Source: an uncultured Gammaproteobacteria bacterium
GTDB lineage: Bacteria > Patescibacteriota > Patescibacteriia > Magasanikbacterales > GWA2-37-8
Reading direction: 5' to 3'
NCBI GenBank assembly: GCA_964444635.1
Contig: CAYUIA010000002.1
Span: 1 to 36,176, forward strand
Length of the DNA stretch: 36,176 nucleotides
In this document: positions 56 through 29,428 of the stretch, piece after piece
How the letters are laid out: each line of letters starts with the position of its first letter
Numbering within the stretch: position 1 is the stretch's first letter
Notes under the pieces: generated by a model
Database searches by the model: none
Told to the model about the DNA's origin: nothing
The model's input: the letters and a program-made list of their open reading frames with translations, nothing else
Translations under genes and position numbers: made by a program

Positions 56-431
56 GTTATTGCCGAAATAATAGCATCTTTTTAAAAAAAAATCAACCCT
101 CACGATTTACTTTTTTAATTTTGTGAAATAGTGCTCGTATACCAATTTTTATTTAATAATAAAAATTATTTCATGTAAAATAGATTAACATAAATAATTT
201 CAATCTAAAATCTTAAATCAAAAATCTAAAATCGCTTCGCCTTCGGCGAAGCTTGCCTGTGTATAACTCTCTTGTATCTATTTCATTATTTTGCAAAAGC
301 ATTTATAATAAAGATAGGTCGAATTTTTTATGACATGCTTGTCTATAAAAAATTTATAAATTTTTTCTTGCGATCGCAAGATGAAAAAAATTATTTCATT
401 TATCCCAAAAAGAAAGGGGGTGCGCAAACTT

Positions 432-2447: not shown

Positions 2448-4616
2448 TCATAAATCATCCAAATCTCGTAAAAAACTTCCCGGCCTTATTTTCGTCGGTT
2501 TGTCTATATAAGCGCTTTCCTCGGCTTCATAAACTACCCCGCTTATTGGATCGTTAAATTTGGTGGCGCTGTCTGAAATCAACGACCTATCATCGAGCAA
2601 TTCACTGTCGATTTCGCTCAAAAACATGCTTGGTCCACTCAAACTATCTCCCCATCCCCCACCAATCATTGGATAAGTTAAAAATAAATTCTTCTTGGCG
2701 CGAGTTATAGCTACATAAAATAAACGTCTTTCTTCTTCCAGTCCTTGCGTTTCAGAGAGTGATCTATCACTTGGAAACGCACCACTACTTAGGTTGATGA
2801 TAAAAACATTCTCCCATTCCAATCCTTTGGCTTGATGCACAGTAGACAAAACGATTTTGTCTTTGACCCCTCTGGCACTTTGCGCCACCTCCCCTTCGTA
2901 AGGGGAGGATGTCCCCTCCTTAACAAGGAGGGGTGGGGGGAGGTCTTTAAAATTTTCTTGCAAAGTCGCTTCCGCCAAAAATTCTTCTAGCTTATCATAT
3001 TTTTCTGCAAATGTCGCCAATTGTTTGATGTCGGCTTTTCTGTCTTTATAATCCAGATATTCATTTTCCAGATAATCTTTATAAGCCGAATCTAAAATTT
3101 TATTTATCATATTGGCTGGCGTTCTGTCGCTAGTTAACATTTCATCCCAAATTTTCAAAAAGTTTTCAAAACCCAATTGCGCTTTACCGCCCAAAATATT
3201 TTTTATTTCCGGCAATTCTTCAATATTTTGCAAACTGCGGACAAATTCCATGATTTTTTCCACAGCTGCCGGACCTATTCCTTCTTCGTGTAACAAAACC
3301 CTTGTCCAAGCCACCAAGTCATTTAAATTACTTACTATTCGTAAATAACTTAATACATCTTTGATATGCGCGCGTTCAAAAAATTTCATTCCCCCGCGAT
3401 AATCATACTGGATTCCGGCTTTGGTCAATTCCATTTCAAGCATCTGGCTGTGTGCGCTGGCGCGAAAAAGCACAGCGATTTCACTTGGCGCTACACCTTT
3501 TTCCAAAGATTCCACAATTTTTTCCAACACAAAACTCGCTTCCATGCTTTGGTCCATCTGCGGGCGTAATTGCGGTTTATCTCCTCCGTCTTTTATCGGT
3601 TTTAAACTTTTTTTGTATTGTTTGGTGTTATAAGAAATAATATCATTGGCGATTTCCAAAATTTCTTTGGTACTGCGATAATTGGTTTCCAATTTAAAAA
3701 TTTTTGCCTCCGGATAATCTCGTTCAAAATTTAAAATATTTTCTATATTGGCGGCACGAAAAGAGTAGATGCTTTGCGCATCATCACCAACAACCAAAAT
3801 ATTTTTATGCACACTGGCCAACTTTTTTATAATTTCCGCTTGAATTTTGTTGGTATCTTGATATTCGTCCACCATGATATATTGAAATTGCGTGGCAAAT
3901 TTATTTTTTATTTCTTCATTTTGCAAAAGCAGTAACCAATTGGTCAAAAGGTCATCAAAATCCATGCAATTGGCTTGTTTTTTGCGTTTTTCATACTCAC
4001 TCCATAAATTTTTTATCTGATCAGCTACAGCAAACCATTGCGGATATTTCAAATCCAAAACTTCTTCAATTGTTGTATCGGCATTTTTGGCAAAAGAAAT
4101 TATTCCTTGCAACACATTAGCCGAAGGATTTTTTTTGTCCGTTCCGGAATTAAAAATATCTTTGGCGCAAAGTTTTATCAAACTGCGACTATCCTCGCTA
4201 TCAAGCACGGTAAATTTTTCCGTATATCCTATAAAACTCGCATGGCGTTTCAAAATTTTATAAGCAATACTATGAAAAGTCCCCGCCCAAGGGAGGATAT
4301 TGGCGGTCTTCGGTCTTCGGTCTTCGGTCTTCGATTGTCCGTAGTCTGTAGTCTGATTGTCCGTAGTCAACTGTGGTCTGTAGACCGTAGACCGTAGACC
4401 ACTTACTCGCTCTATCATCTCGCCCGCTGCTTTGTTGGTAAAAGTCACAAGTAAAATATTTTCCGGTTTTATCCCTTGTTCCAATAGATATGCAACACGA
4501 TAAGTAACCGTTCTTGTCTTGCCCGAACCAGCTCCGGCCAATACTAAACAAGGACCTATCCCCATATAGATAACGGCCAATTGTTCTTGATTGAGCTCTT
4601 TGGAATAATCAATCAT
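2448..4616 (-). CDS. pcrA: UvrD/PcrA-family SF1 ATP-dependent DNA helicase (722 aa) carrying two in-frame repeat-element insertions
   Basis: Walker A AGAGSGKT, motif Ia TFTNKAAGEM, GTFHS, DEYQDTN, VGDDAQSIYSFRAA, TNYRS, STVHQAKGLEW, YVAITRAK. Confidence 0.95.
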   Translation of the reverse strand: MIDYSKELNQEQLAVIYMGIGPCLVLAGAGSGKTRTVTYRVAYLLEQGIKPENILLVTFTNKAAGEMIERVSGLRSTVYRPQLTTDNQTTDYGQSKTEDRRPKTANILPWAGTFHSIAYKILKRHASFIGYTEKFTVLDSEDSRSLIKLCAKDIFNSGTDKKNPSANVLQGIISFAKNADTTIEEVLDLKYPQWFAVADQIKNLWSEYEKRKKQANCMDFDDLLTNWLLLLQNEEIKNKFATQFQYIMVDEYQDTNKIQAEIIKKLASVHKNILVVGDDAQSIYSFRAANIENILNFERDYPEAKIFKLETNYRSTKEILEIANDIISYNTKQYKKSLKPIKDGGDKPQLRPQMDQSMEASFVLEKIVESLEKGVAPSEIAVLFRASAHSQMLEMELTKAGIQYDYRGGMKFFERAHIKDVLSYLRIVSNLNDLVAWTRVLLHEEGIGPAAVEKIMEFVRSLQNIEELPEIKNILGGKAQLGFENFLKIWDEMLTSDRTPANMINKILDSAYKDYLENEYLDYKDRKADIKQLATFAEKYDKLEEFLAEATLQENFKDLPPPLLVKEGTSSPYEGEVAQSARGVKDKIVLSTVHQAKGLEWENVFIINLSSGAFPSDRSLSETQGLEEERRLFYVAITRAKKNLFLTYPMIGGGWGDSLSGPSMFLSEIDSELLDDRSLISDSATKFNDPISGVVYEAEESAYIDKPTKIRPGSFLRDLDDL
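2865..2945 (-). repeat. 81-bp triple-hairpin repeat element inside the helicase CDS (27 codons, in frame)
   Basis: Its reverse complement aligns end to end with intergenic 11557-11636, with about 9 differences over 81 positions by hand alignment. Confidence 0.85.
4304..4402 (-). repeat. 99-bp heptad word-repeat palindrome inside the helicase CDS (33 codons, in frame)
   Basis: CGGTCTT x4, then ATTGTCCGTAGTC / TGTAGTC / TGATTGTCCGTAGTC, then GTAGACC x3 ending in CAC. Left-arm heptads are complementary to right-arm heptads in 6 of 7 positions. Confidence 0.8.
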
Positions 4617-10427: not shown

Positions 10428-10491
10428 CGTATGTCGTATTTCGTATATCGTATATCACATACTAAATACTAAATACGATATACTATATACG
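10428..10491. repeat. Word-repeat palindrome (CGTAT words / ATAC words)
   Basis: CGTATGTCGTATTTCGTATATCGTATATC ... ATACTAAATACTAAATACGATATACTATATACG. Confidence 0.6.
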
Positions 10492-15389: not shown

Positions 15390-16064
15390 ATGGGAAAAAG
15401 AATGAATGCAGTCTCTGCTAAAGTAGACAAAAATAAAGTCTATACTGCGGACGAAGCTATCAAATTGGTGAAAGAAACTTCCGCCGTCAAATTTGACGCC
15501 AGTGTGGAAGTTCATGTCTTGCTCGGAATTGATCCGAAAAAAGGCGAACAACAAATCCGCTCCACCGTCGTTTTGCCTCACGGCACCGGTAAAAGCAAGA
15601 AAGTAGCTGCTTTCGTTTCTGCTGAAAAGGAAAAAGAAGCCAAAGAGGCAGGCGCCGATTTCATCTACAATGAGGAAGATATCAAAAAAATCAAAGACAC
15701 CGGTAAAATAGAATTTGATGTGGCTGTCACCACTCCGGATATGATGCCAAAAATGGCCGTAGCCGCGAAAGTATTGGGTCCAAAAGGCCTAATGCCAAAT
15801 CCGAAAACCGAAACTGTCGGTCCGAATATCAAAAAAATGGTTGAGGAATTGAAAAAAGGTAAAATCACTTTCAAAAACGACGATGGCGCCAATGTCCATC
15901 AAATCATCGGCAAAGTCAGTTTCGACGAAGCCAAATTAAAAGAAAATTTTGAAACATTTTTGGATGCTCTCAAAAAAGTGAAACCAAATTCCGCTAAAGG
16001 AACTTATATCAAAAACTTGACTGTCAATGCGACCATGGGTCCGGCGATAAAGGTACAAGCTTAA
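15390..16064 (+). CDS. rplA: 50S ribosomal protein L1
   Basis: 224 aa. YTADEAIKLVKE..KFDASVEVHVLLGIDPKK..QIRSTVVLPHGTGK, typical of L1. Confidence 0.95.
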   Translation: MGKRMNAVSAKVDKNKVYTADEAIKLVKETSAVKFDASVEVHVLLGIDPKKGEQQIRSTVVLPHGTGKSKKVAAFVSAEKEKEAKEAGADFIYNEEDIKKIKDTGKIEFDVAVTTPDMMPKMAVAAKVLGPKGLMPNPKTETVGPNIKKMVEELKKGKITFKNDDGANVHQIIGKVSFDEAKLKENFETFLDALKKVKPNSAKGTYIKNLTVNATMGPAIKVQA

Positions 16065-16077
16065 TAAAATTTTTAAA

Positions 16078-16106
16078 AAGTCCGTTCGAAAGAGCGGACT
16101 TTTTTG
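16078..16106 (+). terminator. rplA terminator
   Basis: AAGTCCG-ttcgaaaga-GCGGACTT followed by TTTT. Confidence 0.7.
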
Positions 16107-16109
16107 TCT

Positions 16110-16228
16110 GTCATTCCCGCCTCCGAGCGGGAATCCAGTGGTCAATTTAATATTAAACTTTCCTGGATCCCTCGCATTTCCCAAAGGGAGGCCTTTGGCC
16201 CGCGGGATGACACTTCGTGTCATTTTTT
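16110..16228. repeat. GTCATTCCCGC...GCGGGATGAC palindromic element plus terminal hairpin
   Basis: GTCATTCCCGCCTCCGAGCGGGAATCCAG ... CTGGATCCCTCGC...GCGGGATGAC, then ATGACAC-ttc-GTGTCAT followed by TTTTT. Confidence 0.75.
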
Positions 16229-16255
16229 AGGCTATTTTATTGGCCTTTTTACTGC

Positions 16256-16284
16256 TTGCCAATACCCCCAAAATTTGATAAATT
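16256..16284 (+). promoter_or_regulatory. Possible promoter of the thymidylate cluster
   Basis: TTGCCA-N17-TAAATT. Confidence 0.4.
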
Positions 16285-16322
16285 TGATATGCTAAAAAAC
16301 TCTAATTTTTAAACTATTTTTT

Positions 16323-16790
16323 ATGCAAAAACCTCGCGAAAACGCCATTTCCTGGGACGAATGTTTTATGCGAATGGCCAATATTATTGCACAGCGCAGT
16401 AAAGATCCTAGCACTCAAGCAGGAGCTGTAATCACTACTTCACAAAACGTTGTTGTTGGTGTTGGTTACAACGGTTTTCCCAGAGGTATTGAAAGCGCTG
16501 ATTTACCTTGGAACAGAGACGGAGAATTGGCAGATACAAAATATGCTTATGTTTGTCATGCTGAAGAAAACGCCGTTTACAATGCCAATAATTCAACTCG
16601 CGATTGTAAAATTTATTGCACTCTCTTCCCTTGTAACGAATGTGCCAAAACTATTATCCAAAACGGTATTCGTGAAGTGATTTACGAAAGCGATAAATAT
16701 CACGATACTCCGAGCTGTGTTGCTTCTCGCAAAATGTTTGATTTGGCCGGAGTGAAGTATAGAGAATATAAAAGCCAACAAACGATTTAA
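16323..16790 (+). CDS. Deoxycytidylate (dCMP) deaminase
   Basis: CHAEENA and PCNECAK zinc motifs; 155 aa. Confidence 0.9.
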   Translation: MQKPRENAISWDECFMRMANIIAQRSKDPSTQAGAVITTSQNVVVGVGYNGFPRGIESADLPWNRDGELADTKYAYVCHAEENAVYNANNSTRDCKIYCTLFPCNECAKTIIQNGIREVIYESDKYHDTPSCVASRKMFDLAGVKYREYKSQQTI

Positions 16791-16797
16791 ATAATTT

Positions 16798-16873
16798 AAA
16801 GATTCAAAGATTTAAAGATTATACGAACCGTATAAAATCTTGTAATCTTGTAATCTTTCAATCTTACAATCTC
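16798..16873. repeat. Word-repeat palindrome (AAAGATT x3 / AATCTT x4-5 around ATACG-AAC-CGTAT)
   Basis: Read directly from the sequence, between the dCMP deaminase and kinase genes. Confidence 0.75.
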
Positions 16874-16879
16874 AACCTT

Positions 16880-17437
16880 ATGTCTAAAATAATTATTGGT
16901 TTTACAGGTTTACTTTCAAGTGGTAAAGGTACAGCAACAAAATATTTAGAAGAAAAATACAAAGCAAAAAATTGTCGCTTCTCTTCTATTTTGCGAGATA
17001 TTTTAAGCCGTATTTATACAGAACATAGTAGAGATAATTTGATTCGATTATCAGAAATACTACGAACAACTTTTGGAGAAAATATTTTAGCCAAAGCAAT
17101 TTCCGAAGATGCAAAAAATTCAGAATCCGATATTACCGTAGTAGACGGAGTTCGTCGTCTGGCTGATATTGAACATCTGACAAAACTACCAAATTTTATT
17201 TTGGTAGAAATTTTTGCCGAGCCAACTGTCCGTTATGAACGCTTGGTACAAAGAAGTGAAAATGTGGATGATAAAAACAAAACTTACGAACAATTTCTAG
17301 CCGACCACCAACGTTCTACTGAACTTAGCATTCTGGAAGTAACCCCTCACGCAACAGAAAAAATTGATAACAATGGAACTATGGAACAATTACAACAACA
17401 ATTAGATTCTTTAGTAGAAAAATATGCAAATAAATAA
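16880..17437 (+). CDS. P-loop nucleotide kinase family protein (dNMP kinase / dephospho-CoA kinase-like)
   Basis: GFTGLLSSGKGT Walker A; 185 aa; substrate not assignable from sequence. Confidence 0.7.
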   Translation: MSKIIIGFTGLLSSGKGTATKYLEEKYKAKNCRFSSILRDILSRIYTEHSRDNLIRLSEILRTTFGENILAKAISEDAKNSESDITVVDGVRRLADIEHLTKLPNFILVEIFAEPTVRYERLVQRSENVDDKNKTYEQFLADHQRSTELSILEVTPHATEKIDNNGTMEQLQQQLDSLVEKYANK

Positions 17438-17963
17438 TATCGAAGTAGAAATTCGCAGTTTTCTTTCTAAAGAGCAATATGAACATTTTTTGGATTATTT
17501 CAAAAAAAATGGAAAGTTTGTAAAAGAAGATTATCAAGAAACTTATTATTTTGACGGAGAACAAGATTTGCGTATCCAAAAAAACAATTTTTACGCCAAA
17601 ATCTGGTTAAAAAGCGGAAAAATTCACGACGAGCAACGTGAAGAAACGGAAATAAAATTTGATAAAGAAGATTTTTTCAAAGCAGAAAAATTATTTTTAA
17701 ATTTAGGCTATAAAACTCAAATTAAATGGTTTCGCACTCGTAATGTTTTTGAATGGCAAGATATTACCGTAACCATAGATTATTCCAAAGGCTATGGCTA
17801 TATCATTGAACTCGAAAAAATGTCTGACGAAGAAAATAAAAATAAAGATTTGGAATATTTAAAAAACAAAATGACCGAATTGGAAATTATCCAAACTCCA
17901 AAAGAAGAATTTGATGCAAAATATAATTATTATAAAGAACATTGGGAGGAACTAACAAAATAA
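17424..17963 (+). CDS. CYTH-domain protein (CyaB/ThTPase-like triphosphate tunnel metalloenzyme)
   Basis: N-terminal IEVEIRSF (ExExK-like) and a late YIIELEKM strand; 179 aa; 14-nt overlap with the upstream gene. Confidence 0.6.
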   Translation: MQINNIEVEIRSFLSKEQYEHFLDYFKKNGKFVKEDYQETYYFDGEQDLRIQKNNFYAKIWLKSGKIHDEQREETEIKFDKEDFFKAEKLFLNLGYKTQIKWFRTRNVFEWQDITVTIDYSKGYGYIIELEKMSDEENKNKDLEYLKNKMTELEIIQTPKEEFDAKYNYYKEHWEELTK

Positions 17964-17965
17964 TT

Positions 17966-18397
17966 ATGCAAATTAAAATAAAACGCCTAGATAAAACATT
18001 ACCGCTTCCCATATATCATACTAAGGGCTCAGCCGGGTTTGATTTATATGCCAGAGAAGAAACTATTATAGAACCAAAAACTATCGCTCTTGTACCTAGT
18101 AATTTAATCATTGTTATTCCAGAAGGTTTAATGTTGATGGTGGCTTCGCGTTCTAGCACTCCCAAGAAAAAAGGACTAACACCCCCTCACGGAATAGGAG
18201 TTATAGACAATGGCTATTGCGGACCTGACGATGAAATAAAAATTATGGTTTATAATTTTACTGATAACAAAGTTACGGTGGAAAAAGGAGAACGTATCGC
18301 TCAAGGAATTTTTATAAAATTTGAACAAGGAGAATGGGAGGAAGTAGAAATAATAGAAGCTCCAAATCGTGGTGGTTTCGGTTCTACAGGAAAATAA
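17966..18397 (+). CDS. dut: dUTP diphosphatase
   Basis: GSAGFDL, RSS, GVIDNGYCG, RGGFGSTG. ATG 17966 is preferred over the TTG at 17942. Confidence 0.9.
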   Translation: MQIKIKRLDKTLPLPIYHTKGSAGFDLYAREETIIEPKTIALVPSNLIIVIPEGLMLMVASRSSTPKKKGLTPPHGIGVIDNGYCGPDDEIKIMVYNFTDNKVTVEKGERIAQGIFIKFEQGEWEEVEIIEAPNRGGFGSTGK

Positions 18398-18447
18398 GGT
18401 AAAAGTTGAAAGTTTATAAAGTTATAAAGTTCATAAAGTTTAAAAAT
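18398..18447 (+). repeat. Direct word repeat (AAAGTT-containing 8-9 nt units x5), one arm only
   Basis: AAAAGTTGAAAGTTTATAAAGTTATAAAGTTCATAAAGTTT. Confidence 0.55.
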
Positions 18448-19320
18448 ATGAAATCCTACCTCGAAATAGTCCAAAAAATAATAGACGTTGGAGAACGAAA
18501 AGAAAATCGTACCGGTGTTGATACTATTGCTATCGCTGGCGCAATGTTTGAACATGATATGAGCAAGGGTTTTCCTCTTTTGACTACCAAAAAAACTCCT
18601 TTCAAAGTTATGGCCACTGAATTGGAATTTTTTATTAAAGGTATTACAGATAAAAATTGGTTAAAAGAAAGAAATTGTCATATTTGGGATGAATGGGCTC
18701 ATCCACTAAAAGTTCCTTATGGTCACGATGAAGAAACAAAGAAAAAAATGATGGAAGAAAGAGATCTTGGGCCTATCTATGGTTTTCAATGGAGGCATTT
18801 CAACGGTGATTATGAACATCACGAATTTGACCATGAAGGCCGAGGTATTGATCAATTAAAAAAATTAGTTGATACTTTGAAAAAAAATCCCAACGACCGC
18901 AGAATGATTGTGTCCGCTTGGAACCCAAGCAAACTACATGAAATGGCCCTACCTCCTTGTCATTACAGTTTCCAAGTAACGGTTATTAATGGAAAACTAA
19001 ATTTACTTTGGAACCAAAGATCAGTTGATACTATGCTCGGACTTCCTTTCAATATTGCTTCTTATGCCCTACTTTTACATTTACTCGCCAAAGAAGCCGG
19101 ATTACAGGAAGGTAAACTGGTTGGCTTTTTGGCCGACACCCATATTTATGTCAATCATCTTGATGGTGTCAAAGAACAATTGTCACGCGATCCTAATATC
19201 TATCCTCTACCACAAATCGTGACTGAAAATTTTACTTCTATTTTTGATTGGAAAGCCGAAGATACCAAATTGCAAAATTATCAAAGTTTTCCAAAAATTG
19301 AATTCCCTATCGCAGTATAA
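18448..19320 (+). CDS. thyA: Thymidylate synthase (ThyA type)
   Basis: RTGVDT, DLGPIYGFQWRHF, DRRMIVSAWNP, catalytic LPPCH. ATG 18448 (MKSYLEIV) is preferred over the track start in the repeat. Confidence 0.95.
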   Translation: MKSYLEIVQKIIDVGERKENRTGVDTIAIAGAMFEHDMSKGFPLLTTKKTPFKVMATELEFFIKGITDKNWLKERNCHIWDEWAHPLKVPYGHDEETKKKMMEERDLGPIYGFQWRHFNGDYEHHEFDHEGRGIDQLKKLVDTLKKNPNDRRMIVSAWNPSKLHEMALPPCHYSFQVTVINGKLNLLWNQRSVDTMLGLPFNIASYALLLHLLAKEAGLQEGKLVGFLADTHIYVNHLDGVKEQLSRDPNIYPLPQIVTENFTSIFDWKAEDTKLQNYQSFPKIEFPIAV

Positions 19321-19321
19321 T

Positions 19322-19831
19322 ATGAAAACAACTCTTCTCATGGCTATAACAGCTGACGGAAAAATCGCCAAAAGCGCCTCCCATTTCGCCAATTGGACTT
19401 CGGGCGCTGATAAAAAAATGTTTGTGGAAAAAACAAAATCCGCAGGTGTAATTATTATGGGTCTGACGACTTATCAAACTATCGGACGACCGCTTCCGGG
19501 ACGCTTAAATATCGTCTTGACTCCGGAACCGGAAAAAGAAACTTCTATCCCAGGATCTTTGGAATACACTTCGCAAAATCCAAAAGAAATCTTGGAAGAT
19601 TTGGAAAAAAGAAATTTTTTTGAAGCCATTATCGGCGGTGGTGCGACTATAAACGGATTATTTTTAAAAGAAAATTTGGTTGATGAAATTTGGCTAACTG
19701 TGGAACCGAAAATTTTTGGTGAAGGCCTCAATCTTTTTCGTGGAGTAGAGACTGATTTAAATTTAGAATTACTGGAAACTGTGCAATTGGATAAGAATGT
19801 GGTGCAGTTAAAATACAGGGTAATAAAATAA
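19322..19831 (+). CDS. RibD C-terminal-domain-type reductase, probable dihydrofolate reductase
   Basis: ITADGKIA, IIMGLTTYQTIG, NIVLT, IIGGGATINGLF, DEIWLTVEPKIFGEG. It starts 1 nt after the thyA stop. The DHFR role is inferred from context. Confidence 0.75.
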   Translation: MKTTLLMAITADGKIAKSASHFANWTSGADKKMFVEKTKSAGVIIMGLTTYQTIGRPLPGRLNIVLTPEPEKETSIPGSLEYTSQNPKEILEDLEKRNFFEAIIGGGATINGLFLKENLVDEIWLTVEPKIFGEGLNLFRGVETDLNLELLETVQLDKNVVQLKYRVIK

Positions 19832-19941
19832 ATCCCAATATCCAATTCCCAATACCCAATGAATGACCAATGTCTAAATGACCAAATGGTTTTAGGGCTT
19901 AGGGTTTGATTGATCATTGGTCATTGGGGTTTGGTCATTTT
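19832..19941. repeat. Word-repeat palindrome (CCCAAT/GACCAAT words / ATTGGTCA, ATTGGGG words)
   Basis: AATGACCAATG pairs with CATTGGTCATT, and AAATGACCAAA pairs with TTTGGTCATTT. Confidence 0.75.
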
Positions 19942-19971
19942 AAAAAATTTTTAAATTTTTAATTTTTATTT

Positions 19972-20685
19972 ATGTTCATCATGTTAGACGCTATCGACGG
20001 AGGCGGTAAAGGAACCGTCATTGAGGCCTGGAAAGATTATATTACATCTTTGGGTAATCCTATTTTTGATCTGAAAGATTATTGGGAACAAAACAAACAA
20101 TACCCGGAAATAAACGAACTGCGATCTTATGATTTTGTTTTTACTGCCGAACCGACTTACGCCGGTATCGGTCAAGTAATCCGTGAGGAACTTATCAAGA
20201 CCGGCACAGACTATCCTCCGGAAGCTGTGGCTCAGGCTTATTCTTTGGATCGTTTGGTACTTTATAAAAAAATTATTTTACCACTTTTGGCTCAAGACAA
20301 ATTTATCATTCAAGACAGAGGTTTTTCCACCTCTTTGGCTTATCAAAACGCCCAAACTCCGGAATTAACCTTTGAAAAACTACTAGCCATGCCAGGAAAC
20401 ACTCTGGCGCTCAAACACCGCCCTGATTACCTCATCCTTTTGACCACCGAGCCGGAAGAAGCCATGCGCCGACTGGATGCTCGTGGCGATAAAAAAGACA
20501 ACGTTATCTTTGAAAACCTGGATTTTCAAAAGAAAACCGCCGCTACTTTCATGTCTCCCGGTTATCAAGAAATTTTTACTCAAGCCGGAACCAAAATATT
20601 TTACTTGTCTACAATGGGTGAAATTGATATAATAAGACAAAAGGCTAAAGAACTTTTAGCCAATATTATTAATCAAACAGTTTAA
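19972..20685 (+). CDS. tmk: Thymidylate (dTMP) kinase-like
   Basis: FIMLDAIDGGGKGT P-loop, DRGFSTSLAYQ, lid-like RLDARGDKKD. Confidence 0.75.
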   Translation: MFIMLDAIDGGGKGTVIEAWKDYITSLGNPIFDLKDYWEQNKQYPEINELRSYDFVFTAEPTYAGIGQVIREELIKTGTDYPPEAVAQAYSLDRLVLYKKIILPLLAQDKFIIQDRGFSTSLAYQNAQTPELTFEKLLAMPGNTLALKHRPDYLILLTTEPEEAMRRLDARGDKKDNVIFENLDFQKKTAATFMSPGYQEIFTQAGTKIFYLSTMGEIDIIRQKAKELLANIINQTV

Positions 20686-20687
20686 GC

Positions 20688-20776
20688 GGATAACGAAATA
20701 CAAACAAATACGAAATTACGAACCCAACATAATTGTTTTCGTTTCGTAATTACGTATATTTTCGTATTTCGTATCC
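20688..20776. repeat. Word-repeat palindrome (ACGAAAT words / TTCGT words)
   Basis: GGATAACGAAATACAAACAAATACGAAATTACGAA ... TTCGTTTCGTAATTACGTATATTTTCGTATTTCGTATCC. Confidence 0.75.
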
Positions 20777-20798
20777 AATTAATTTTTAACTAATATAT

Positions 20799-21566
20799 AT
20801 GCTTATCACCGCTTCAGAAATCATCAAAAAAAGCTGGGAAACATATTCCAAAAATTGGAAGGTTTTTTTGCCTTACATGATCTCACTTTTCACGACTTCA
20901 TTGACTTTAGGTTTAGTGGGTATTTTGGGTTTAACTATTGAAAAATTTTTACATCGTGGAAGTCTGGTTTTTATAAATAATCTCTTCATTGCCGCTTTAA
21001 CAGTAGCTTTATTATTATTAACTCTTTGGCTTACAATAGCTCTAACAAAAGCTTTAAAAAGTTTTGTGGAAAAAAAAGATATCGAAACATTGAAAGAAAA
21101 TCTTCATCAAACCGGCAAATACCTTTGGCCTGTTATATGGACTTCATTTTTAATGTTTCTGGCGATAATCGGCGGGTTTGTATTATTTATAATCCCAGCC
21201 ATTATTTTTGCCATTTGGTTTTCCTTTTATTTTTATATCGTACTTTTTGAAGACAAAACCGGCGTTGCCGCTTTAAAGAGTAGTCGTGATTTGGTAGTTG
21301 GTCGCTGGTGGAGAATACTCTGGCTCTTGATAGCGCCCGGGATTTTTTACGGGGTTATCGTTTTAGTTTTGCAAGGAACATTTACTTATCCTTTATCCTT
21401 TATTTTTGAAGAAGGAAACCTCGTCGCTTTATTTATTCGCTCGTTTTTTAATACCGCTTTTTCCGCTTTATTTGCACCTCTTTCAGCTTTGATAACTCTT
21501 TATCTTTATCTTAGCGCTAAGGAAAATCCGGTAGAAAAAATACCCGAAACTCCGGAAAAAATATAA
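20799..21566 (+). CDS. Multi-pass membrane protein (255 aa)
   Basis: About six hydrophobic helices; no enzymatic motif. Confidence 0.75.
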   Translation: MLITASEIIKKSWETYSKNWKVFLPYMISLFTTSLTLGLVGILGLTIEKFLHRGSLVFINNLFIAALTVALLLLTLWLTIALTKALKSFVEKKDIETLKENLHQTGKYLWPVIWTSFLMFLAIIGGFVLFIIPAIIFAIWFSFYFYIVLFEDKTGVAALKSSRDLVVGRWWRILWLLIAPGIFYGVIVLVLQGTFTYPLSFIFEEGNLVALFIRSFFNTAFSALFAPLSALITLYLYLSAKENPVEKIPETPEKI

Positions 21567-21579
21567 ATACTTATCAAAA

Positions 21580-21609
21580 AAAATACTCTGTCCCACAGAG
21601 TATTTTTTA
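21580..21609 (+). terminator. Rho-independent terminator
   Basis: AATACTCTGT-ccc-ACAGAGTATT followed by TTTT. Confidence 0.8.
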
Positions 21610-21610
21610 A

Positions 21611-21639
21611 TTGACTTAACTGTTTAAAAAAGGTAAAAT
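21611..21639 (+). promoter_or_regulatory. Sigma70-type promoter of gatB
   Basis: TTGACT-N17-TAAAAT. Confidence 0.6.
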
Positions 21640-21683
21640 CGTATATAGTATGTAATATATAGTATCAAAAATACGATATACGA
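21640..21683 (+). repeat. Word-type hairpin in the gatB 5'UTR
   Basis: (T)CGTATATAGTAT ... ATACGATATACGA. Confidence 0.5.
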
Positions 21684-21697
21684 AAATATTAAATTTT

Positions 21698-23239
21698 ATG
21701 TCCAAGTTAATCCCAGTCATCGGCCTAGAAATCCACGTTGAGCTCAACACCAAGAGTAAAATGTTTTGTTCTTGCGCCAATAATCCCGATAAAGACGCTC
21801 CCAATACCAATGTTTGCGAGGTTTGTTTGGCACACCCGGGAACTTTACCAGTACCCAATATTGAAGCTCTACACTCTACTATCAAAATCGCCAAAGCACT
21901 CAATTGTAAAATAGCTGAAAAATCAAAATTTGACCGTAAACATTATTTTTATCCCGATTTGCCCAAAGGCTATCAGATTTCTCAATTTGATCAACCAATA
22001 GGTGAAAACGGATTTATTGATTTACAATTTATAAATGTCAAAAATGATCGCCCGACTGCGAGAGTCGGTATTACACGTGTTCATCTGGAAGAAGACACTG
22101 CTAAACTGCTACACGACAAAAACGGTAATACTCTGGTTGATTTTAATCGTGCCGGCGTACCATTGGTAGAAATAGTTTCCAATCCAAATATACAAACATC
22201 TACCGAAGCCAAGGTTTACTGTCAAGAATTGCAAACTATTTTTCGCTATCTAGACGTTTCCGACGCTGATATGGAAAAAGGACACATGCGTTGCGAAGCC
22301 AATGTTTCCATGCAAGAAGAAGGAAAATTTATCATTGAAGGACCAAGTATTTCCGCACTTGACGGATATGCCCTCAATCACAAAGTTGAATTGAAAAATA
22401 TCAATTCTTTCCGCGCCATGGAAAAAGCTATTGAATATGAAATAAAAAGACAAACTGAAGCTCTGCAAAAAGGAGAAAAACAGTTGCCGGAAACTCGTGG
22501 TTGGAATGACGAAAAAGGAGAAAGCTATGTTCAGCGCGTCAAAGAAACTTCTGCGGATTATCGTTATTTCCCCGAACCGGATATCCCGGTTTTTGAACCT
22601 CTCAAACTCTGCCCCGATGTCGTTTTACCGGAATTACCAAACACCAGACGACAAAGATTTTTTAATGAATATGGTTTTTCTTATGCTGATGCAGATTTAT
22701 TAATCCAAAATAAACATTGGAGCGGTTATGCGGAAAATGTAATGACCGAACTGCAAGAGTGGATAGATTCTCTGCCGGAAACCAAAAGCGAAGATAGTAT
22801 TTACAAGAAAAAAGAGCTGGCAAAACTCGCCGGCGGTTGGTTAACCACCAAACTTGCAGGAGCAATGGCAGAAAGAAAAATAGATATTAGGATTTTGAAA
22901 CTAAGCGCGGAAAATTTCGCCGAACTTATAACTTTGATTTATGCCAAAAAAGTAAATTCAACCAATGCTCAGAAAATACTCAGTGAAATGCTTGATGCTA
23001 ATACCGATATTGATCCGACGCATATCATGGAAGAAAAAGGTTATGGCCAGGTCAGTGATGAAAATAAATTGGAAGAAGTAATTTTGGAAGTTATCAAAAA
23101 TTATCCCGCACAAGTGGAACAATTCAAATCCGGTAAAGATCCGATAATCAAATTTTTACTCGGGATGGTAATGAAGGCCACCGAAGGCAGTGCCGACCCG
23201 GTTGTGGCAGAGAAAATACTACGGGAAAAATTGAAATAA
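21698..23239 (+). CDS. gatB: Asp/Glu-tRNA(Asn/Gln) amidotransferase subunit B
   Basis: VIGLEIHVELNTKSKMFCSC, HLEEDTAK, RCEANVS, KNINSFRA, C-terminal YqeY-like tail. Confidence 0.95.
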   Translation: MSKLIPVIGLEIHVELNTKSKMFCSCANNPDKDAPNTNVCEVCLAHPGTLPVPNIEALHSTIKIAKALNCKIAEKSKFDRKHYFYPDLPKGYQISQFDQPIGENGFIDLQFINVKNDRPTARVGITRVHLEEDTAKLLHDKNGNTLVDFNRAGVPLVEIVSNPNIQTSTEAKVYCQELQTIFRYLDVSDADMEKGHMRCEANVSMQEEGKFIIEGPSISALDGYALNHKVELKNINSFRAMEKAIEYEIKRQTEALQKGEKQLPETRGWNDEKGESYVQRVKETSADYRYFPEPDIPVFEPLKLCPDVVLPELPNTRRQRFFNEYGFSYADADLLIQNKHWSGYAENVMTELQEWIDSLPETKSEDSIYKKKELAKLAGGWLTTKLAGAMAERKIDIRILKLSAENFAELITLIYAKKVNSTNAQKILSEMLDANTDIDPTHIMEEKGYGQVSDENKLEEVILEVIKNYPAQVEQFKSGKDPIIKFLLGMVMKATEGSADPVVAEKILREKLK

Positions 23240-27677: not shown

Positions 27678-28259
27678 TTATTTTCGCCCCAACATCTTCA
27701 ATGCCTCCTTCATTAGCTGTTCACTTGTTTTACCATTAGCTTGAAGTTTTTGCATTGTGTCTCTAGCTTGTATTCCGCTGTATCCCAAAGCCATCAAGCC
27801 TTCTACCACATCCCCTATTTCATTACTAAATCCTTGCCCCAAATTTGCACTTGTACTTGGTCCGACCTTGTTTTTGAGTTCTACCACCAGTCTTTCTGCG
27901 GTTTTTTTACCCATTCCGGAAACTTTGGTCAGATATGCGACGTCACTGCGAGCGATAGCTGAACTGATTTCTCCAACACTGCCCAAAGAAAGAATACGCA
28001 AAGCAGTTTTCGGACCAACCCCAGAAACTAATAAAAATTTTTCAAATAAGTTTTTTTCTTCTTTGTTTTTGAAACCGTACAATTCCATCGCATTTTCTCT
28101 GACCGCCAAATATGTCAAAATTTCGGTTTCCATACCTACTTTAAAAAACTCAGCACCATTAGTATTGACCAAAATTTCATAACCAACACCGCCGGTAGTC
28201 AAAACTATTATCTGCTCGCCATTGTTTTCTATAATTTTTCCTTTTATGAGAGAAATCAT
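27678..28259 (-). CDS. ruvA: Holliday junction branch migration protein RuvA
   Basis: MISLIKGKI...GGVGYEILV, helix-hairpin-helix LLVSGVGPKTALRIL and KVSGMGKKTAERLVVELK. Confidence 0.9.
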   Translation of the reverse strand: MISLIKGKIIENNGEQIIVLTTGGVGYEILVNTNGAEFFKVGMETEILTYLAVRENAMELYGFKNKEEKNLFEKFLLVSGVGPKTALRILSLGSVGEISSAIARSDVAYLTKVSGMGKKTAERLVVELKNKVGPSTSANLGQGFSNEIGDVVEGLMALGYSGIQARDTMQKLQANGKTSEQLMKEALKMLGRK

Positions 28260-28261
28260 AC

Positions 28262-28334
28262 TATTTAGTATAAAGTATATAGTATTTAGTATTAAGTATC
28301 CATACTTTATACTTAATACTCAATACTAAATACT
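28262..28334. repeat. Word-repeat palindrome (AGTAT/TTAGTAT words / ATACT words)
   Basis: Fills the whole ruvA / NIF3 intergenic gap. Confidence 0.75.
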
Positions 28335-29302
28335 TATTTATTTTTCTTATTACGGTTTACACGAATAAGTCCTCCACAAGTCAGCACTTCCACGCCTTTC
28401 TTTTCAAGCTCGTCAAGAAATAAATTCATTCCCAAAGAATCCGAAGAAATATGTCCGGCTACTACCACATTCATAAATTGCTCTTTGGCTTTGTTCATAG
28501 CATCGTCTTTCATATGCATAGTCACAATAGTACTAATCCCGGCTTTACTCAAAATTTCGTAAACTTTTTGTGACGGGTTGGTGCCACCGGTCATTTCCAT
28601 CAAAAATTTACCGACTCGATGTCGCGGATTGCCGGCAAACAGTTTCGGTCCGGCTCCGACTTTTTTTGCTTCAGAATATTCAGGGATTTCCAGTAAAACT
28701 TTTAACAGCTCATTTATAGTTTCCGGTTTCTTATTTTTCAAAAACTTTTCCACATATTGACTTACCAAATTATCGGTTACTGTGTGCGTATTCATCAAAT
28801 CAATTTGCAAAAGTTTGGCCATATCAATGACCTGAAAATGATTGGCCGGGTGAACACTGCGCCCTACTTCTTTCATTCTTTCTTCAGTTATTTGTTCGGC
28901 CAGATGAACCGGAATACCGAGATTTTCATAAACTTCAACCACCATATCCATCACTCCGTGCAAATCCGCCAATCCCCTGCCTATCGGATGGTGTGCCAAA
29001 ATCAAATCTATTTTTTTACCTCTTTCATTAAGTTGAGAAGCCAAGAGGATTTCCGCTGGTCCTATATCAATCCCGGCCAAAATTCTTTTTACCGGTTTCT
29101 TGGGGTCGCCCAGATGCAAACGACTATCCGCATAAGGGTTAAAAAGTCGTTCAGTATCAAAATATTTTTTATCTGCCGGTTTGAGATCTTCATATTCTTT
29201 TTTGACTCTACTGAGATATTTTTTGACTCCTTTTTCACCTCGCGGATCAGCTGAAATAGCCATTTTCAGAGCTGTTTCAAAGACTTGTTGAATAGTCATC
29301 AT
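28334..29302 (-). CDS. NIF3-family (DUF34) dinuclear metal centre protein
   Basis: LILAHHP and VVAGHISSD motifs. ATG 29302 or 29299 is preferred over the TTG at 29317. Confidence 0.8.
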   Translation of the reverse strand: MMTIQQVFETALKMAISADPRGEKGVKKYLSRVKKEYEDLKPADKKYFDTERLFNPYADSRLHLGDPKKPVKRILAGIDIGPAEILLASQLNERGKKIDLILAHHPIGRGLADLHGVMDMVVEVYENLGIPVHLAEQITEERMKEVGRSVHPANHFQVIDMAKLLQIDLMNTHTVTDNLVSQYVEKFLKNKKPETINELLKVLLEIPEYSEAKKVGAGPKLFAGNPRHRVGKFLMEMTGGTNPSQKVYEILSKAGISTIVTMHMKDDAMNKAKEQFMNVVVAGHISSDSLGMNLFLDELEKKGVEVLTCGGLIRVNRNKKNK

Positions 29303-29322
29303 ATGTGTATGTATCAAGCTTG

Positions 29323-29355
29323 CCCCGTGATCCGTTTTAAACGGATTTTACGGGG
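29323..29355. repeat. Nested palindrome of the CCCCGTGA...TACGGGG family
   Basis: CCCCGTGATCCGTTTTAAACGGATTTTACGGGG. Confidence 0.65.
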
Positions 29356-29428
29356 TATTAAGTATTAAGTATATGAATTTTAGCTTTTTAGGGCTAAAAA
29401 GTCAACTTTAATAGAGCCTGTAAACATC

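Follow-up and report, generated by a model that had tools for sequence, protein, structure and literature searches.

The window analysed here is a stretch of 36,176 nt (contig CAYUIA010000002.1, C2 in our contig numbering) from the draft genome of a bacterium of the candidate phyla radiation (CPR) (G000; 621 kb in 78 contigs, 36.8% G+C). The reads of this genome come from activated-sludge metagenomes. Our subject is a set of four word-repeat elements, labelled E1, E2, E3 and E4, which sit in gene gaps of a thymidylate operon. They belong to a foldback class that is genome-wide, lineage-wide and fast-changing: one arm is built from a tandem word of 6-9 nt (mostly 7) and the other arm from its complement. 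The class is biased to gene junctions, reuses its words between loci, is gained, lost and replaced between relatives, shows unit turnover and is associated with PF05635 genes. PF05635 is the "23S rRNA intervening-sequence protein" family, with an Avd-like four-helix bundle. Our preferred reading, to which we assign a probability of about 0.6, is that the operon hairpins are gene-less members of a foldback repeat family of the intervening-sequence (IVS)/PF05635 type, which colonises originally tight junctions.

Word-repeat hairpins in a thymidylate operon

The operon (16323-21566) has every gene on the + strand. It codes for dCMP deaminase, a P-loop kinase, a 179-aa protein, dUTPase, ThyA, a DHFR/RibD_C-type reductase, Tmk and a membrane protein (in shorthand dcd-kinase-dut-thyA-folA-tmk). 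This gene order is kept across the order. The elements and the boundaries of the operon are listed below, with a strand for the terminators only. G002 and G004 are congeners.

16079..16105, + strand: intrinsic terminator of ordinary type after rplA (GC stem and T-run), upstream boundary of the operon
16798..16820: E1 left arm, three AAAGATT(N) units, between dcd and the kinase gene
16821..16833: E1 inner stem-loop, ATACG-AAC-CGTAT, with a 5-bp stem; the outer A-T pair is G-C in G004
16834..16873: E1 right arm, 5 x AATCTT(NN), complement of the left arm; unit order is changed in G004
18402..18446: E2, array with one arm only, of AAAGTT(T/C)ATA, between dut and thyA; in G002, these words also lie beside a PF05635 gene (locus L050)
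19832..19888: E3 left arm, CCCAAT x4, then GACCAAT words; begins 1 nt past the folA stop
19909..19941: E3 right arm, ATTGGTC and ATTGGGG words
19945..19968: AATTTTT array between E3 and the tmk start
20688..20732: E4 left arm, made of ACGAAAT and ACGAAC words, between tmk and the membrane-protein gene
20733..20776: E4 right arm, TTTCGTA words
21576..21608, + strand: bidirectional terminator of ordinary type after the membrane-protein gene (A8, stem, T6), downstream boundary of the operon

Three elements are two-armed word hairpins (E1, 16798-16873; E3, 19832-19941; E4, 20688-20776). The initial annotation had described palindromes made of repeated words at these sites, and coordinates, arms and folding bear out this architecture. 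When compared with dinucleotide shuffles, E1 (-19.4 kcal/mol, z = -6.4) and E4 (-30.3 kcal/mol, z = -6.2) fold far better than expected. E3 reaches -33 kcal/mol but with a z of only -2.0, and E2 has no fold beyond the shuffles (z = -1.25). The helices are runs of 5-6 bp; each word interrupts them once, as its 1-2 linker bases stay unpaired. The loops of E1, E3 and E4 (0-20 nt) contain no ORF. A search of positions 16000-22000 with Rfam covariance models (E up to 1) gave no relevant match.

Stable hairpins after stop codons might act as unusual Rho-independent terminators or attenuators in which the T-run is missing. We give this next to no chance. A terminator scan detects none of E1-E4 (0/4), and their AT-rich stems are not followed by a T-run, just as the initial annotation had observed. 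Canonical A-run/stem/T-run terminators are present at the operon ends and elsewhere, in some cases nested in word arms (C4:10639, C14:8496 and C15:10240). Genome-wide, divergent gaps contain two-armed elements (6/60) no less often than convergent gaps do (3/61). Array-free hairpins do show the expected bias to 3' ends and depletion from divergent gaps, unlike the arrays. Contigs labelled as metatranscriptome cover 18375-18563 (E2) and 20588-20775/20746-21166 (E4), at low coverage and with possible DNA carry-over. These contigs span both elements, so that E2 and E4 appear to be transcribed through, for which this is weak evidence. Rho-independent terminators were ruled out on account of the missing T-run, the occurrence in divergent gaps and the canonical terminators at the operon ends.

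A genome-wide class and its turnover at orthologous junctions

The genome-wide census used our own ORF calls as the coding map (612 genes, 89.4% coding, 10.6% non-coding). Tandem Repeats Finder (TRF) detects 247 period-7 arrays in the genome, compared with 27 in an order-2 Markov control. Strict pairs of a word and its complement number 24 in the genome and 0 in the control. After merging, 150 of 204 period-7 arrays are intergenic, i.e. they lie within the 10.6% of the DNA that is non-coding. Arrays of period 6 and period 9 are mostly inside ORFs, as expected. Thus, the junction bias that the initial annotation proposed to look for is found across the genome. Its view that the elements punctuate the thymidylate operon is, however, not supported: a period-7 or period-8 array is present in about 31% of the gaps of at least 25 nt (106/341), be they tandem (76/220), convergent (16/61) or divergent (14/60). 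For roughly 45% of the arrays, complementary words are found at most 130 nt away, compared with 9% and 20% for two control words of the same composition; this test was confined to words with at least two G or C, as AT-only words gave high control counts. With tandem units of about 7 nt, an excess over chance and a mainly intergenic location, the arrays have the properties of heptameric simple sequence repeats (SSRs). Their units also vary between close relatives (in order in the E1 right arm, in number in the gatB leader), as do long SSRs (LSSRs) and short tandemly repeated repetitive (STRR) sequences.

The 204 period-7 arrays represent 73 canonical heptamers, of which about 20 occur at 3-15 loci each, many of them at 5-15. 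Each word from the window is found again elsewhere in the genome. TACGAAA arrays occur at 8 or more other loci, AAGATT arrays at several and AAAGTTyATA arrays on C21 and C4. E3 has a full-length copy with 86.5% identity (C14:6929-7039) as well as partial copies. The four operon elements differ from each other, yet each is a member of a dispersed word family because the words recur across loci. The initial annotation had concluded from the different words that the elements are not copies of a single mobile element. The mutual difference stands and reflects several families, but the words are not unique to their loci: all of them recur, and E3 even has its copy on C14. Some word arms also enclose GC-rich hairpin repeats.

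In the region 18291-18471, metagenome contig depth increases 5-10-fold over the AAAGTTyATA array, and many contigs diverge on both sides. Therefore, an array of this word is multi-copy in the sludge communities, be it elsewhere in the genome or in other organisms. The organism's Logan contigs tend to stop at E3 and E4.

The window contains further elements of this type, listed here together with the gatB promoter; no strand is assigned to them.

202..233: one-armed AATCTAA array, from the array scan
4304..4400: word hairpin within a helicase ORF, CGGTCTT / GTAGACC / TAGTCTG words
10428..10490: word hairpin of the same class, CGTATAT / ATACTAA
21611-21639: gatB promoter, TTGACT-17-TAAAAT, near-consensus, 3' of the A8-stem-T6 terminator
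21641..21690: word hairpin in the gatB leader, CGTATAT / ATACGAT, downstream of the promoter
28258..28336: word hairpin, AGTATAA / ATACTTA; its words also form the arms of the C11 PF05635 cassette
29355..29372: GTATTAA array, which together with 28302-28336 brackets a NIF3-like gene

The words of the helicase-ORF hairpin match the arms of a PF05635 cassette at C62:63-89 and C62:515-535. In the gatB-leader hairpin, the unit number varies by about three units among three congeners. In this leader (21611-21697), the promoter and the upstream terminator are conserved while the unit number of the hairpin varies.

The informative congeners for the operon junctions are G002 (ThyA 98% identical) and G004 (ThyA 93%). 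At dcd|kinase, the window and G004 have 89 nt with E1, while G002 has 3 nt, and the genes overlap in more distant relatives. In G004, the right-arm units of E1 are reordered, and one A-T pair of the inner stem is changed to G-C. At dut|thyA, the window has AAAGTTyATA, G004 has no array, G002 has another word (ATAAGCw) and distant relatives have 6-8 nt. At folA|tmk, E3 of the window is replaced by a short AAAATT array in G004 and by a GC-rich hairpin plus a AACTTTAT array in G002; the gap is 4-43 nt in more distant relatives (875 nt in G054). A strain in run X6 departs from the window precisely at the folA stop. Between tmk and the membrane-protein gene, the window has a 113-nt gap with E4, G004 has 9 nt and G002 an unrelated 88 nt; distant relatives range from overlap to 10 nt. 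E4 is wholly absent in G004 beside tmk DNA that is 95-100% identical to that of the window. None of the filled versus empty junctions (window versus G004 and G002) shows a target-site duplication, so that the comparison indicates replacement without duplication.

The initial annotation had asked if the word or only the architecture is conserved at orthologous junctions. The comparison gives a clear answer: the architecture recurs but the word does not. At dcd|kinase, dut|thyA and the tmk/membrane-protein junction, the gaps of more distant relatives are 0-12 nt, and the ancestral state was a tight junction. The suggestion in the initial annotation of a locally acting repeat-generating mechanism survives in part; it is backed by the unit turnover between the window and G004 and comes nearer to the truth than operon punctuation.

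Some flanking genes are divergent, too. The kinase gene (16880-17437) of the window has about 50% DNA identity to those of G002 and G004, which share about 85% mutually. The breakpoints of this divergence are hairpin E1 and the start of the next gene. In G002, dut (17942-18397) is a divergent allele that ends at the E2 junction. As judged by DNA identity, the operon is a mosaic. Because the breakpoints of the divergent kinase and dut alleles fall at E1 and E2, the junction repeats may mark, or promote, gene-sized recombination.

The leading idea of the initial annotation was that of operon-internal structures for RNA processing or stability. As selected RNA elements, they could be sites of RNase III processing, or stabilisers through which neighbouring cistrons become independent of each other in stability or translation. 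We consider this unlikely. It would fit the stems, which are 20-30 bp of imperfect double-stranded RNA (dsRNA) without a T-run, inside a unit with canonical terminators at both ends, and a gene for RNase III is present (C1:7008-7397). RNA-labelled contigs enter and cross E2 and E4, and the change in the inner stem of E1 is compensatory. However, congeners with near-identical flanking genes lack the elements or have unrelated sequence in their place, distant relatives have overlapping genes there, and the same elements occur in divergent gaps and within ORFs. There is also no preference for folding on the sense strand: in gaps with word hairpins, neither strand gives the more stable RNA fold overall (sense 17, antisense 16, p = 0.79), unlike in gaps with array-free hairpins, mostly terminators, which favour the sense strand (33 against 20, p = 0.01). 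The 5' arm is not richer in purines than the 3' arm. With no array polarity and equal folds on both strands, a strand-specific RNA or translation signal was ruled out. Taken together, the lack of polarity, the absence or replacement in congeners and the presence in divergent gaps make a conserved regulatory role of the elements unlikely.

A related proposal concerns the arrays themselves, especially the one-armed TACGAAA and AAAGTT arrays upstream of starts. They might be multivalent sites for a single-strand-binding regulator (Csp, S1 or similar) that tunes translation without Shine-Dalgarno sites. At least 8 sense TACGAAA arrays lie within about 5-35 nt of an ATG, and the mismatches found in arrays cluster to a modest degree at 1-2 positions of the word (z about 3). 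A similar proposal was made for the TAACTGA repeats (MacGregor 2015), and CspB binds one heptamer per protein (PMC4679880). We regard this as highly improbable, given that co-oriented gaps have no strand bias (A>T on the sense strand in 44 arrays, T>A in 36), that arrays are adjacent to stops as often as to starts, that there are dozens of different words and that arrays are not conserved at orthologous starts. Separately, four one-armed sense TACGAAA arrays end a few bases before starts (C4:11603-11652, C6:8777-8829, C28:6840-6890 and C65:1065-1102 of G000). All four have GT directly before the ATG (AATGT-ATG on C6, C28 and C65; AAAGT-ATG on C4). In this genome, reported to be without Shine-Dalgarno sites, a TACGAAA array with GT-ATG is possibly a leader module that these loci have in common.

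Two further observations concern the operon. The 179-aa ORF between kinase and dut (17424-17963) has no Pfam match. Among the compared genomes, it is confined to the genus of the window (G002 and G004 have versions with 89% identity); the same operon of more distant relatives lacks it. The rplA|dcd gap (16105-16225) is filled with GC-rich hairpin repeats (GTCATTCCCGC...GCGGGAATCCAG and CTGGATCCC...GGGATGACAC). These are common to G002, whereas G004 instead has AATTTT and AATCTT word arrays. Similar hairpins (GTCATTGCGAG...GGGATTGC) are flanked by word arrays on C48 and C4.

Association with PF05635 genes

The genome contains four PF05635 genes, and all four (4/4) lie between inverted word arrays that abut the start and stop codons. 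We refer to such an arrangement as a cassette.

C39: PF05635 cassette with arms AAGATT / AATCTT, which are the words of E1
C11: PF05635 cassette with arms AGTATAA / ATACTAA, the words at 28260 of the window
C62: PF05635 cassette with arms CTTCAGT-CGGTCTT / TAGTCTG, as in the helicase insert at 4304
C33: PF05635 cassette with arms of 8-mers, GATATTRC

Only 9 of 512 tested genes have comparably complementary flanks, and PF05635 genes are three of the top four. The window elements themselves have the inverted arms of such a cassette (complementary word arrays; z about -6 for E1 and E4). The loops of E1, E3 and E4 contain no PF05635 ORF, so that the window elements can only be gene-less relatives of the cassettes. 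The sharing of arms is at the level of words (E1 with C39, E2 with L050 of G002, 28260 with C11 and 4304 with C62), and short repeated words cannot establish descent.

PF05635 genes are not the only bracketed genes. In the window, the NIF3-like gene (28334-29317, - strand) is bracketed by complementary AGTATTA / ATACTTA arrays in the fashion of a PF05635 gene. Five further non-PF05635 genes are similarly bracketed, e.g. C10:9701-10507, C26:4600-5712 and C1:9627-12116.

The association extends beyond this genome. PF05635 is carried by 27 of 61 relatives, including all six genomes of the window's genus. At 24 of 32 fetched PF05635 loci, the gene is flanked by inverted arrays of 6-9-nt words beyond a shuffle null. 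In a maximum-likelihood tree, the PF05635 proteins group by word type and word length, across genera. The clades are supported by 96/93 (AGTAT clade), 98/96 (GACTAC/AGTC pair), 94/86 (9-mer GGCTTGGGA clade) and 100/100 (AT-only clade). Of 53 intergenic word families, 22 are found again in the PF05635 flanks of other genomes, and these cover 80 of 150 arrays; for ten random control word sets, only 1-8 families recur. Array density correlates with PF05635 copy number among 60 relatives (Spearman 0.57, p = 2e-6; 0.49, p = 3e-4 without the window's genus), with about 20 kb sampled per genome and with statistics that ignore phylogeny. Mean density is 1.9 arrays per 10 kb with PF05635 and 0.3 per 10 kb without it, an about six-fold difference.

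One relative has a cassette at a junction that holds a gene-less hairpin in the window. At the junction that holds E3 (GACCAAT / ATTGGTC) in the window, exactly between the genes for DHFR and Tmk, G060 has a PF05635 gene with the arms GTTCATAG..AGCCAAT / ATTGGCT..CTATGAAC, in the order thyA-DHFR-[PF05635 cassette]-tmk.

Given the same architecture and the partly shared words of the arms that bracket PF05635 genes, the operon elements look like selfish repeat DNA and not like conserved operon signals. Several points weigh against reading them as gene-less members of the PF05635-type family. About half of the arrays are one-armed, and for many word families this genome lacks a cognate PF05635 gene. 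Neither a reverse transcriptase nor a Y1 transposase/REP-associated tyrosine transposase (RAYT; PF01797), where REP stands for repetitive extragenic palindrome, was found in the genome, the assembly of which is 86% complete. This argues against routes similar to those of diversity-generating retroelements (DGRs) or of REP doublets forming hairpins (REPINs), and an origin from a REP/RAYT system or a retroelement was dismissed for the same reason. The empty junctions without target-site duplications, the density statistics that ignore phylogeny and the RNA-labelled contigs across E2 and E4 also belong here. The mobility mechanism is hypothetical, as is a biochemical role of PF05635 with the word arrays. 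The association could arise from a small mobile gene that prefers existing hairpins.

The last point is part of another explanation, in which the arrays are ordinary LSSRs made by slippage, with heptamers favoured and tolerated only between genes. Pairs would then arise by template switching in quasi-palindromes, and PF05635 genes would be small mobile ORFs that land, or are retained, in hairpins. Heptamers are indeed the commonest LSSR unit in many bacteria, for which an origin by slippage has been proposed, as far as this work is summarised in later papers (PMC4679880, PMC4692102). The unit turnover between congeners, the one-armed arrays and the missing transposase and reverse transcriptase are as expected from this explanation. 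It leaves unexplained, however, why the same words occur at many unlinked loci and in other genera, why the word type tracks the PF05635 lineage, why there are near-full-length copies such as that of E3 on C14 and why array density is about six-fold lower without PF05635. We thus consider it doubtful.

For a family of gene-less PF05635-type repeats, the following scenario can be drawn. Arrays would grow and shrink through replication slippage, and template switching within a strand, or selection on the hairpin, would keep the arms complementary. The spread of copies or words between loci would follow a route that is possibly PF05635-dependent. Gene junctions would be the only tolerated sites, apart from occasional in-frame insertions. 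The elements would be co-transcribed with the operon and form long imperfect dsRNA stems. It is plausible that the genome's RNase III cuts the stems; in this case, mRNA cut between cistrons would be a by-product and not a designed function.

It is tempting to go one step further, though only tentatively. The PF05635 four-helix-bundle proteins may be dedicated partners of the foldback elements. Each lineage would recognise its own 6-9-nt word and would promote, in trans, the spread or maintenance of cassettes and of gene-less copies that resemble MITEs (transposable elements of the miniature inverted-repeat kind). If true, this would be an unrecognised mobile-element class, and it would account both for rRNA intervening sequences and for the surplus of heptamer repeats between genes that is seen across bacteria.

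In practical terms, the hairpins break metagenome assemblies and are signposts of recombination mosaics in core operons. Annotating them as terminators or as regulatory RNAs should be avoided.

Comparison with known systems

The initial annotation knew of no named feature class that fits the elements. This is too strong, as three published features come close (PMC4692102, PMC4679880, PMC4990558). Our paper searches gave none in which foldback arrays of many words are presented as a class, or are tied to PF05635 in any case other than the single observation from Coxiella.

Heptamer arrays are known from Xanthomonas and Nostoc. In Xanthomonas, GGGAATC forms 70-75 convergent pairs of arrays on opposite strands, which are potential stem-loops (Rehm et al. 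2015, PMC4692102). These arrays are 89-93% intergenic and vary in length and sequence between close species. The word in Nostoc is GGGGAYT (PMC4692102). Together with the cyanobacterial STRR heptamers, they resemble the elements described here in being tandem heptamers that are intergenic and form convergent pairs. They differ in having one dominant G-rich word per genome, which was studied as a G-quadruplex former, while the words described here are AT-rich and of more than 50 types. A link to cargo genes is not drawn (PMC4692102).

LSSRs with units of 5-11 nt were surveyed by Mrazek and co-workers (2007); according to the summary in PMC4679880, heptamers are most abundant and an origin by slippage was proposed. 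The TAACTGA repeats of Beggiatoaceae form 169 direct sets and a single indirect one (MacGregor 2015, PMC4679880). These repeats, too, are heptamers, intergenic and often right upstream of start codons. They are, however, direct only and have a single word, and no architecture with a complement arm is described.

REP elements, bacterial interspersed mosaic elements (BIMEs), REPINs and MITEs share with the elements that they are dispersed families of short intergenic palindromes, possibly non-autonomous partners of a protein-coding element, and occasionally in frame within genes. REPINs depend on RAYT, a Y1 transposase, and the search of this genome gave none. Terminal inverted repeats and target-site duplications characterise MITEs; no such duplications were seen here. 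Neither class has arms of tandem words.

The closest parallel involves PF05635 itself. The 23S rRNA genes of Coxiella, Leptospira, Brucella and Xanthomonas contain an IVS with an S23p/PF05635 ORF (Warrier et al. 2016, PMC4990558). In Coxiella, a 28-bp terminal stem is cleaved by RNase III, the S23p ORF lies in the loop, and the ORF start is preceded by tandem GACAGAT heptamers, the copy number of which is strain-variable (PMC4990558). PF05635 proteins are structural homologues of Avd, the accessory protein of DGRs (PMC10053308). In the genome under study, the 23S rRNA gene, sought for an IVS, is not in the assembly. The terminal inverted repeats of the IVS form a long stem; likewise, the PF05635 arms described here are inverted word arrays, with words that are common to the window hairpins. 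The window elements differ in that they lack an ORF, lie in or between protein-coding genes instead of rRNA genes, and use dozens of words. RNase III cleavage is demonstrated for the IVS, whereas for the window elements it is predicted by analogy. Published descriptions of the IVS do not make word arrays the defining architecture.

This kind of repeat is thus already on record. What the locus adds is the series from empty junction via gene-less element to full cassette at one and the same junction, the co-phylogeny of words and proteins, and the correlation of array density with PF05635 copy number. The findings bear on the decades-old puzzle of intergenic heptamer repeats in cyanobacteria, Xanthomonas, Beggiatoaceae and many other bacteria, and on the origin of ORF-bearing rRNA intervening sequences, two phenomena that occur side by side in this genome.

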